Source: a virus
DNA: 64,000 nt
IMG/VR virus record: IMGVR_UViG_3300002091_000031
Span: 973 to 64,972 of that record
Strand: one strand, 5' to 3'
Shown here piece by piece: positions 62,477-63,176 of the stretch (positions are counted from its first letter, which is position 1; each line of letters begins with the position of its first letter). The position numbers and the translations under genes are program-made. The notes under the pieces are model-generated. The model saw only the letters and a program-made list of their open reading frames with translations, was not told where the DNA came from and made no database searches.

Positions 62477-62610
62477 TTTGTCTAATTCAAATTAAGTTCG
62501 TATATTTGCAATGTAAATAAAAAGTAAGAGTTCTTTAAAGGTTGTCAAAAAAAAAGTTTAAAAAAAAACTTGACAATTCAAAAACTTTTCGTATATTTGC
62601 ATATATTTAT
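62477..62610 (+). promoter_or_regulatory. Promoter array for tRNA cluster 2: P1, boxA-like site, P2 and TATTTAT
   Basis: TTTG(62477)-N20-TATATTTG(62501); AGTTCTTTAA at 62529-38; TTG(62570)-N19-TATATTTG(62592)-CA-TATATTTAT. Confidence 0.75.
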
Positions 62611-62634
62611 TAATAACAACAAAAAATTATCACA

Positions 62635-62739
62635 ATGATAGCAAACATAAACAATATGATTAATTCGATTAACTGGAGACATAATAATAGTCGTTCAGAA
62701 AATCAAGTCATGCTATCGAGTGATATTAATACTATCTAA
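62635..62739 (+). CDS. Putative leader peptide MIANINNMINSINWRHNNSRSENQVMLSSDINTI
   Basis: 34-codon ORF between P2 and a terminator. Confidence 0.5.
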   Translation: MIANINNMINSINWRHNNSRSENQVMLSSDINTI

Positions 62740-62764
62740 TATTAAATCACTAAAAATATCGAAA

Positions 62765-62798
62765 GCCTCTGACTCATAAGAATCAGAGGTTTTTTTTT
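62765..62798 (+). terminator. Intrinsic terminator (attenuator-like) upstream of the tRNA cluster
   Basis: GCCTCTGA-N10-TCAGAGGT followed by T8. Confidence 0.85.
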
Positions 62799-62802
62799 AC
62801 AC

Positions 62803-62979
62803 ATGGACGAAGAAGAAAAAAGATATAAAAAGCTTGGTGTTGTGAAGCCAAAGGATTTAGAAACTGATTTCGATGAAATTCATGACCGATTTAAGAAGAT
62901 AGCGTTAGACGAGGGTTACATAGGCGAACTTAAGTTTGTTAGAGAAAGAGGAAAGATTATAGTATACACAGTTATTTGA
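62803..62979 (+). CDS. 58-aa ORF not in the track (MDEEEKRYKKLGVVKPKDLETDFDEIHDRF...)
   Basis: Protein-like composition; fills the space between the terminator and the first tRNA. Confidence 0.6.
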   Translation: MDEEEKRYKKLGVVKPKDLETDFDEIHDRFKKIALDEGYIGELKFVRERGKIIVYTVI

Positions 62980-62994
62980 CATTACGGGAAACAC

Positions 62995-63065
62995 ACGGGT
63001 ATGGTGCAATGGTAGCATACGGGTCTCCAAAACCTTTGATATGGGTTCGAATCCTATTACCCGTG
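62995..63065 (+). tRNA. tRNA-Trp(CCA)
   Basis: ACGGGTA/TACCCGT, G73, anticodon 63027-29, GGTTCGAATCC. Confidence 0.9.
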
Positions 63066-63075
63066 CAAATAATAC

Positions 63076-63176
63076 ACGTAAATGACCGAGTGGTCGAAGG
63101 TGGTAGGCTCCAACCCTACTGAGATATATAGCATTTATGTTAGGTCTCCACATAGGTTCAAATCCTATTTTACGTG
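63076..63176 (+). tRNA. Class II (long variable arm) tRNA with anticodon CCA
   Basis: ACGTAAA/TTTACGT, G73; D arm ACC-GAGTGGTCGAA-GGT; GTAGG-CT-CCA-AC-CCTAC; 32-nt variable region. Confidence 0.8.

Follow-up and report, generated by a model that had tools for sequence, protein, structure and literature searches.

The last part of the 64-kb viral DNA stretch analyzed here (the window; IMG/VR record IMGVR_UViG_3300002091_000031) contains a short leader open reading frame (ORF), an intrinsic terminator and a cluster of transfer RNA (tRNA) genes that very probably constitute a multivalent, ribosome-mediated (leader-peptide) transcription attenuator gating a phage tRNA operon. The window is taken from a 65.5-kb viral contig that is estimated to be 18% complete. 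The attenuator reading is based on the conservation of the leader reading frame, the restriction of its substitutions to cognate amino acids, the match between its codons and the downstream tRNAs, a covarying antiterminator, the lack of a later promoter, the co-occurrence of leader and tRNA genes, and the presence of paralogous leaders in front of other tRNA blocks. Phage tRNA genes are usually seen as constitutive codon-usage aids or as decoys against tRNA-cutting defences and, to our knowledge, the control of their expression is largely unknown. No account of attenuation control of tRNA genes was found in the full-text literature searched, the coverage of which was incomplete and included few subscription journals. 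If the reading is correct, this would be the first such case as far as we could find, and the element would be a feedback device by which a virus gauges, for each amino acid separately, how much decoding capacity the infected cell has.

A preliminary description of the region, made from the window sequence, had listed a promoter (P2), a 34-codon ORF, a hairpin, a strong terminator, an ORF of 58 amino acids (aa) and the tRNAs, all of which are present at or near the positions proposed, and had suggested that they form a translation-sensing attenuator. The comparative evidence given below favors a ribosome-mediated switch. Two parts of the suggestion had to be replaced: the antiterminator of 5 base pairs (bp) gives way to a hairpin of 69 nucleotides (nt), and the focus on Trp gives way to seven amino acids.

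The leader peptide and its cognate tRNAs

The leader ORF (62635 to 62739, plus strand) has 34 codons and encodes MIANINNMINSINWRHNNSRSENQVMLSSDINTI. It contains a single TGG codon (62674-76) and two TCG codons, as had been described. Apart from Ala3, codons 2-21 (62638 to 62697, plus strand) specify only Asn, Ile, Met, Ser, Trp, Arg and His. Thus, 20 of the first 21 residues fall within the set {W,S,H,I,M,N,R}, for which the background in the window proteins is 0.315. A six-frame scan of the window determined that the leader is the sole 21-mer with a score of 20, and the best 21-mer from a real protein scored 17/21. This composition is not explained by AT-richness because Lys, Phe, Tyr and Leu codons, which are as AT-rich as those of the set, are missing from the regulatory part of the leader.

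Relatives of the module were found in viral and metagenomic contigs by searching with DNA patterns, for the terminator first and then for the leader core. About 19 distinct versions of the module were left from these searches after the removal of chance matches. The metagenome scan returned 36 loci, of which about 13 were chance matches (e.g. a HAD-hydrolase gene), and in bacterial and archaeal genome contigs the leader pattern gave chance matches only. In about 25 relatives the ATG, the frame and the stop codon of a 31-35 codon ORF are kept, the insertions and deletions are in-frame, and the differences fall mostly at third codon positions. When the peptides are aligned on the Trp, the variation in the 14 columns from -9 to +4 stays almost wholly within the seven amino acids (for example, I/N/H/S/M exchanges). 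The variable positions in columns -12 to +6 hold 43 residue types inside the set and 11 outside, and the respective numbers for the C-terminal third of the leader are 25 and 40. The peptide core NS[IM][NS]WR[HR]NS, nine consecutive residues around the Trp that overlap the hairpin termed A below, is nearly invariant. The preliminary description had named conservation of the leader codons in related phages as a check on its proposal, and this conservation was found: TCG and AGA are invariant, even though the search pattern permitted TCN and AGR, and the changes seen elsewhere stay within the cognate set.

The tRNA cluster starts at 62995 and runs beyond the window end (62995 to 64000, plus strand). 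It begins with tRNA-Trp(CCA) (62995-63066, plus strand), which is followed by a long-armed tRNA of 101 nt that also has a CCA anticodon (63076-63176, plus strand; 53 bits in Rfam), a tRNA-like RNA of 145 nt, tRNA-Ser(UGA), a Ser-like tRNA, tRNA-His(GUG) and a 64-aa ORF. The earlier observation that the first two tRNAs both read the Trp codon and are followed by Ser and His tRNAs is therefore correct. In a relative that is 97% identical (L005), the cluster continues with His, Ile (two), Met, Val, Asn (three) and Arg (three). Counting with ARAGORN from the leader to the next host-type promoter or to the end of the locus in 15 relatives, 131 of the 138 tRNA genes behind the leader were assigned to Trp, Ser, His, Ile, Met, Asn or Arg. 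L027 and L047 show the cluster in full, and in these two it serves exclusively those seven amino acids. The match extends to the level of codons and anticodons: AAY with GUU, CAY with GUG, AUU with GAU, AUA with UAU or CAU, AUG with CAU and UGG with CCA, and for Ser and Arg, UCG with CGA, UCA with UGA, AGY with GCU, AGA with UCU and CGY with ACG. These comparisons support a sensed set of seven amino acids, represented by about 11 codon classes, rather than mainly Trp.

Terminator, antiterminator and hairpins

The intrinsic terminator (62763 to 62798, plus strand) has arms of 13 nt (62763-75 and 62780-92), an AUAA loop (62776-79) and nine U that end at 62798; the strong terminator described earlier is thus confirmed with slightly adjusted borders. 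Every relative has a terminator 50-70 nt past the stop codon; at least six sequence versions exist, and the folding free energies in the homologs are -12.4 to -17.5 kcal/mol. The fold of the whole window leader has a z-score of -6.2.

The predicted antiterminator domain (62706 to 62774, plus strand) is an irregular hairpin of 69 nt with a free energy of -16.6 kcal/mol (z = -4.5). Its helices pair AGUCA (62706-10) with UGACU (62770-74), GCU (62712-14) with AGC (62764-66), and UCGA (62716-19) with UCGA (62759-62). The apex is a second hairpin (hairpin B, 62720-62750) that spans the leader stop codon, which lies within the loop (62732-39); a hairpin at about this position had been noted before and is real. 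The final third of the ORF supplies the 5' strand of the antiterminator, whose 3' base coincides with the 5' terminator arm, and a covarying form of this structure is found in some 25 relatives. The antiterminator first proposed for this leader, TCAGA at 62695 with TCTGA at 62768, did not hold up since TCAGA lacks conservation: relatives have TCAATT, TCAAAC or TCAAAT instead.

When the nascent RNA was folded up to the terminator loop, the minimum free energy structure paired the 5' arm of the terminator with a segment containing GUC in 13 of 18 sequences. This segment is located immediately 5' of a conserved second Met codon. An anchored pair table gave 5-7 contiguous pairs in all 18 sequences (12 in L028), with GUC:GAC invariant. 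The positions flanking GUC:GAC change together, A:U being replaced by G:C at -1 and at +1 and a mismatch by G:C at +2. At least seven versions of the closing helix were found, including AGUCA:UGACU, GGUCA:UGACC, GAGUCGG:CCGACUC, GUCAGG:CCUGAC, GAGUCGAGU:GCUCGACUC and the 12-bp helix of L028. Loci that were found through the 58-aa protein rather than the leader also have covarying antiterminators (GAGUCGAGU:GCUCGACUC, GUCGGG:CCCGAC and UUGAGUCGG:CCGACUCGG). The comparison relies on anchored pair tables and on per-sequence folds; RNAalifold on a MAFFT alignment of the antiterminator region gave no consensus because of a 1-3 column misalignment of the 3' strand and a helix register that shifts between clades.

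An unconstrained fold of the sequence between the anchors (69-86 nt) gave a single long hairpin closed by GUC:GAC in 16/16 homologs, with free energies of -7.7 to -26.4 kcal/mol and z-scores of -1.4 to -6.3 (no higher than -2.5 in 15/16). Judged by eye, with no scripted count, most of these 16 folds place the stop codon within or at the apical loop. When a ribosome was simulated on the Trp codon, the core of the terminator arm was predicted to be paired upstream with a probability of 0.78-1.00 in all 16. Without a ribosome, the probability of sequestration ranged from 0.04 to 0.99, and this variation arises because in some lineages the start of the ORF pairs with the antiterminator strand, in the manner of a 1:2 competitor. 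The spacing between the last regulatory codon and the antiterminator strand is about 9-12 nt, roughly the distance at which a stalled ribosome would start to cover that strand. In these computations a stalled ribosome would spare the antiterminator and a ribosome at the stop codon would destroy it, which is the geometry expected of such a switch.

A further hairpin (hairpin A, 62667 to 62704, plus strand) carries the Trp-Arg codons UGGAGAC in its 5' arm and is present in the predicted nascent folds of 18/18 relatives. Its 3' arm differs by lineage (GUCnUUCAA, UCUCCAA, CGUCaCUAG, GUC...CCAAU) and the pairing is always kept. Hairpin A may be a pause or timing hairpin for the ribosome and the polymerase.

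Association of the leader with tRNA genes

The order of elements is the same in every member of the family: promoter, ORF of 31-35 codons, hairpin over the stop codon, intrinsic terminator and then the 58-aa gene. In the L010 clade, the tRNAs stand directly behind the leader and terminator and there is no 58-aa gene. An independent sample was obtained by alignment of the 58-aa protein, which gave 42 viral loci; the leader pattern had not detected most of these. A leader was present at 9 of the 10 loci with downstream tRNAs and absent from 17 of the 18 without (9/1 versus 1/17; Fisher p ~1e-5 by our own arithmetic). The loci with a family leader and a tRNA within about 1.6 kb are L064, L065, L066, L070, L071, L072, L075, L085 and L076 (tRNA at +1.4 kb), and in their leaders the set accounts for 86-95% of the first 21 residues. 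The exceptions are L094-96, where tRNAs are located 1 kb downstream and there is no leader, and L067, which has a leader and no cluster. Taken with the L010 clade, this association ties the leader to the tRNA cluster and not to the 58-aa gene.

Leaders of other tRNA blocks

Paralogous leaders were examined in the contigs of three relatives (L101-L103), in which each of the other tRNA blocks has its own promoter with the same initial sequence, its own leader ORF and its own terminator. The leader cores are LVLCLCVLVL, LLVLNLCLLVV and LVLLLCLLVV for Cys/Val/Leu blocks, FDFAFEAFAEADF and FDFAIEAAEADF for Phe/Glu/Asp/Ala blocks, and TVTTYQPKQYTQGGKP for a Pro/Gln/Tyr/Thr/Lys block. In five of the six paralogous leaders, 7-9 nt from the final third of the ORF are complementary to the 5' arm of the terminator. 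For the sixth (L101, Asp block), the automatic scan gave 5 nt only, and the nascent fold pairs GGUCGAGU with the arm, so that a pairing of ORF and terminator arm is formed in the nascent fold of 6/6. Together with the W/S/H/I/M/N/R block, the sets of all blocks cover all twenty amino acids. The window contig is a fragment, and one block with a leader is visible in it.

The leaders of every set start with M-(R/K/I)-x-x-N-(N)-I (L101:1147-1227, L102:975-1055, L102:3934-4026, L102:6867-6974 and L103:836-910). This shared start suggests either the duplication of one ancestral leader or a common initiation context.

Promoters and the likely host

All long ORFs in the window are on the plus strand, and the other gene products encoded there include a sigma-70 family factor, DnaJ, ClpP and a DUF2828 protein. 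Approximately 16 plus-strand copies of the element TTG-19 nt-TATATTTG, with the core TTCGTATATTTGCA, precede genes across the window, and allowing up to three mismatches TTCGTATATTTGCA has 33 matches against 14.7 expected. We take this element to be the Bacteroidota form of promoter (-33 TTTG, -7 TAnnTTTG). The source is likely a giant phage of Bacteroidota, and Bacteroidota is the likely host phylum. No close relative was found among the INPHARED phage records, which gave matches at the tRNA level only.

Promoter P2 (62570 to 62599, plus strand) belongs to this window-wide family and comprises TTGACA (TTG at 62570-72), a 19-nt spacer and TATATTTG at 62592-99. Transcription from P2 would likely start at about 62603-62606, based on the known spacing of Bacteroidota promoters. 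A second copy of the same family and type, P1 (62478 to 62508, plus strand; TTG, spacer and TATATTTG, with the -7 box at 62501-08), lies 91 nt upstream of P2, and a tandem P1 is also found in L005, L007, L008 and L015/L048. The region upstream of the leader ORF is A-rich and without a Shine-Dalgarno sequence; genes of this phage usually have a promoter followed by about 31 nt of A-rich leader and an ATG. From the leader to the end of the cluster, no host-type promoter was found in the window or in 9 of the 10 relatives checked. The window therefore has none between the terminator and the tRNAs, in agreement with the preliminary description.

Two candidates for internal promoters were considered and rejected. 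A bare -7-like box at 62931, TAAGTTTG, is not accompanied by a -33 TTG, and in L005 a synonymous substitution abolishes it. The sigma-70-like sequence TTGACA-18-TATGGT at 62976 would place the transcription start inside tRNA-Trp.

Elsewhere in the window, a tRNA-Met unit (61026-61461, promoter 61026-61058) has a P2-like start, an only ATG frame of 3 codons and no terminator before its tRNAs. The sequence directly 3' of the -7 box, TTTGCATATATTTATTAA, is common to P2 (62599-62618), the tRNA-Met promoter (61056-61075) and the promoters of the other tRNA blocks (L101-L103), and may represent a conserved start region or discriminator. A small GC hairpin (GGGUAACCC or GAGGUUCACACCUC) is located between the promoter and the leader ATG in L013, L015/L048, L010 and L103; the window is without it.

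Proposed mechanism

In the proposed mechanism, the host RNA polymerase would initiate at P1 or P2 and transcribe the 34-codon leader, on whose A-rich start, lacking a Shine-Dalgarno sequence, a ribosome would load. Codons 2-21 would then sample the codons of the downstream tRNAs, namely Asn (AAY), Ile (AUU/AUA), Met, Ser (UCG/UCA/AGU), Trp, Arg (AGA/CGU) and His (CAU). If decoding is fast, the ribosome would reach the stop codon at the apex of the antiterminator and unzip its 5' strand, and the freed 3' strand would join the terminator so that transcription stops at 62798. If an aminoacyl-tRNA is scarce, the ribosome would stall within codons 2 to about 20, on any of about 11 codon classes. 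The antiterminator would then form during transcription and hold the loop-proximal and basal nucleotides of the 5' arm of the terminator, allowing the polymerase to enter the 58-aa gene and the tRNA cluster. Stalling probably raises read-through in vivo. The newly made tRNAs would speed up decoding and close the gate, giving negative feedback on the tRNA supply.

A wider and more tentative proposal, which we would put at rather less than an even chance, is that every tRNA block of the phage has its own codon-matched attenuator, the complete set covering all 20 amino acids. Such a set would act as a decoding-speed sensor array that serves both as an inducible counter-defence and as a translation homeostat. 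If this is true, the cutting, depletion or uncharging of a tRNA class by the host, through anticodon nucleases, tRNA-degrading defences or starvation, would selectively induce the phage replacements for that class, which include the long-armed versions. The leader may also be of use as a compact natural sensor of tRNA supply for Bacteroidota, and leader peptides could predict the tRNA content of incomplete phage contigs.

Alternative explanations

Several observations weigh against attenuation. At equilibrium, the full-length RNA favors the terminator together with hairpin B, so that the antiterminator would have to win kinetically, as in classical attenuators. The closing helix in the window spans only 5+3+4 bp, and the domain is weak in L008 and L015 (-7.7 and -11.4 kcal/mol). 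Shuffled upstream RNA often pairs with the free arm as well (p = 0.01-0.9 in the single-sequence test); this test discriminates weakly, and the strength of the case thus lies in positional conservation and covariation. In the pattern-found relatives, 8 of the 21 leader residues were fixed by the DNA pattern itself, which is not so for the window or for loci identified with the 58-aa protein. Not all cluster tRNAs serve the seven amino acids; the few that do not are Val, Ala, Glu, an Asp-like RNA and a suppressor. L067 has a leader with no nearby tRNAs, and its 58-aa ORF is altered at the end. Finally, the phage has its own sigma factor, and a promoter class that was not recognised is conceivable.

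Four other explanations were considered. The ORF could be a stand-alone micropeptide gene acting in trans, with a leaky constitutive terminator and tRNAs made by unregulated read-through. The layout is indeed the one normal for genes of this phage (promoter, about 31 nt of A-rich leader, ATG), the core NS[IM][NS]WR[HR]NS is strongly conserved, and partial terminators are common inside phage operons. A micropeptide nevertheless leaves unexplained why substitutions are confined to seven tRNA-matched amino acids, why there is covariation between the terminator arm and the final third of the ORF, and why leaders of other tRNA blocks are written in their own amino acids; moreover, the leader is missing where the 58-aa gene has no tRNAs behind it. 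We therefore regard it as very unlikely. The same low standing is given to a nascent-peptide arrest leader of the TnaC, SecM or Erm type, in which a small molecule or factor rather than the tRNA supply would trigger the stall that opens the same antiterminator. The near invariance of nine consecutive residues around a single invariant Trp, as in TnaC, is what such a leader would show, but these residues are encoded by the 5' arm and loop of hairpin A, and constraint on the RNA explains much of their conservation. The paralogous leaders lack this core and have quite different ones that correspond to the tRNAs of their own blocks, as expected of codon sensing rather than of an arrest motif common to all.

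Processive antitermination of the boxA/Nus or N/nut type, loaded on the leader start GCAUAUAUUUAUUAA or on hairpin A, would make the ORF incidental or the source of an N-like RNA-binding peptide. This type of control is frequent in stable-RNA operons, and the initial transcribed sequence of P2 is shared with the tRNA-Met promoter at 61026-61058 and recurs before the other tRNA blocks of relatives. However, the tRNA-Met promoter has the same start yet is followed by no leader ORF and no terminator before its tRNAs, boxA, boxB and matches to N-like families were looked for and none were found, and neither the codon/tRNA match nor the covariation of ORF and terminator is explained. It is considered highly improbable. 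Least likely of all is a non-coding small RNA of about 195 nt that ends at the terminator and contains a fortuitous open frame. The leader is highly structured and, between the window and L005, more conserved than its flanks (2 changes in ~200 nt), as a small RNA would be, but some 25 diverged members preserve the start, the stop and the frame, with indels that are in-frame and changes at third codon positions, and the extreme amino acid composition matches the tRNAs.

Comparison with known attenuators

Among the trp, his, thr and ilv attenuators, the nearest in logic to the phage leader are the multivalent ones of enterobacteria, namely the ilvGMEDA and ilvBN leaders that sense Ile/Leu/Val and the thr leader that senses Thr/Ile. 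They share with it a short leader rich in the codons of several amino acids, mutually exclusive antiterminator and terminator structures, and read-through that follows a stall at a hungry codon. Unlike these systems, which gate biosynthetic enzymes, the phage element would gate tRNA genes and has no sequence similarity to them. It would sense seven amino acids through about 11 codon classes, mostly present once or a few times each with no long runs. It also differs in having the stop codon in the apical loop of the antiterminator, in its host phylum (Bacteroidota) and in belonging to a set of several leaders.

The E. coli trp attenuator (trpL, segments 1-4) likewise forms an antiterminator upon stalling and a terminator upon full translation. 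As in trpL, the upstream hairpin could time the ribosome and polymerase, and the pairing of the ORF start with the antiterminator strand in several relatives resembles the 1:2 pairing of segments. In contrast to trpL, the phage leader has a single Trp codon among many regulatory codons, and the untranslated RNA of most members is predicted to fold the antiterminator, so there is no clear superattenuation. The pheST attenuator, with its pheM leader, is similar in that a leader peptide controls a component of the translation apparatus; it is bacterial, senses one amino acid and gates a synthetase.

The Bacteroid-trp motif is read as a Trp leader-peptide attenuator and would show that this type of control occurs in the likely host phylum, although its gated genes and amino acid set differ from those of the phage element. 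This motif (RF01692) was described as a cis-regulatory candidate of Bacteroidetes (PMC2864571). T-boxes sense tRNA without a ribosome and gate the genes for aminoacyl-tRNA synthetases, biosynthesis and transporters (PMC2494555). In T-boxes, tRNA status controls an antiterminator/terminator switch and the homeostasis of translation supply, as it would in the phage element. T-boxes bind uncharged tRNA directly, whereas sensing in the phage element would occur via the translating ribosome. The phage element has no Rfam match to a T-box and no specifier loop or T-box motif; it has a conserved ORF instead. The Rfam leader families (Trp_leader, His_leader, Thr_leader, Leu_leader, RF01692 and others) gave no match in 62600-62800 at E up to 1, and no match was found at the gathering score in the relatives L001, L027 and L047.

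The 58-aa gene and unusual tRNAs

The gene for the conserved 58-aa protein (62803 to 62979, plus strand) has its ATG 4 nt past the T-run of the terminator (0-13 nt in relatives), and from this position it is taken to be co-transcribed by read-through. It is a real gene, as the differences from a relative that is 91% identical are mostly synonymous. An AlphaFold model of the protein (predicted local distance difference test, pLDDT, 86) has a beta-alpha-beta-beta fold. There was no significant fold match in the PDB, no Pfam or PHROG family above threshold (weak EF1_GNE, E = 0.005) and no lead from the Atlas. The protein is a widespread small phage protein (loci L064-L100) that is found in many other phages without tRNAs.

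The tRNAs for Leu, Ser and Tyr are normally the only ones with a long variable arm. In the relatives (L005, L013, L027, L047, L010 and others), most of the cluster amino acids have a tRNA of about 73 nt as well as a version with a long extra arm, the lengths of the latter being 91-92 nt for His, 84-85 for Ile, 84-93 for Asn, 85-88 for Met, 96-101 for Trp and 91 for Val. The Ser-like tRNA of the window (63480-63566) has a 6-nt anticodon loop and is assigned the anticodon 'ga' by ARAGORN, and its counterpart in L005 is a normal tRNA-Ser(CGA). The window tRNA could be a decoder, mutated or non-standard, of UCG, which is invariant in the leader. Anticodons to stop codons, CUA (labelled 'Pyl' by ARAGORN) and UUA, were also found in relatives (L013:1848-1919 and L033:4254-4325), which hints at suppressor tRNAs or stop-codon recoding in this group of phages.

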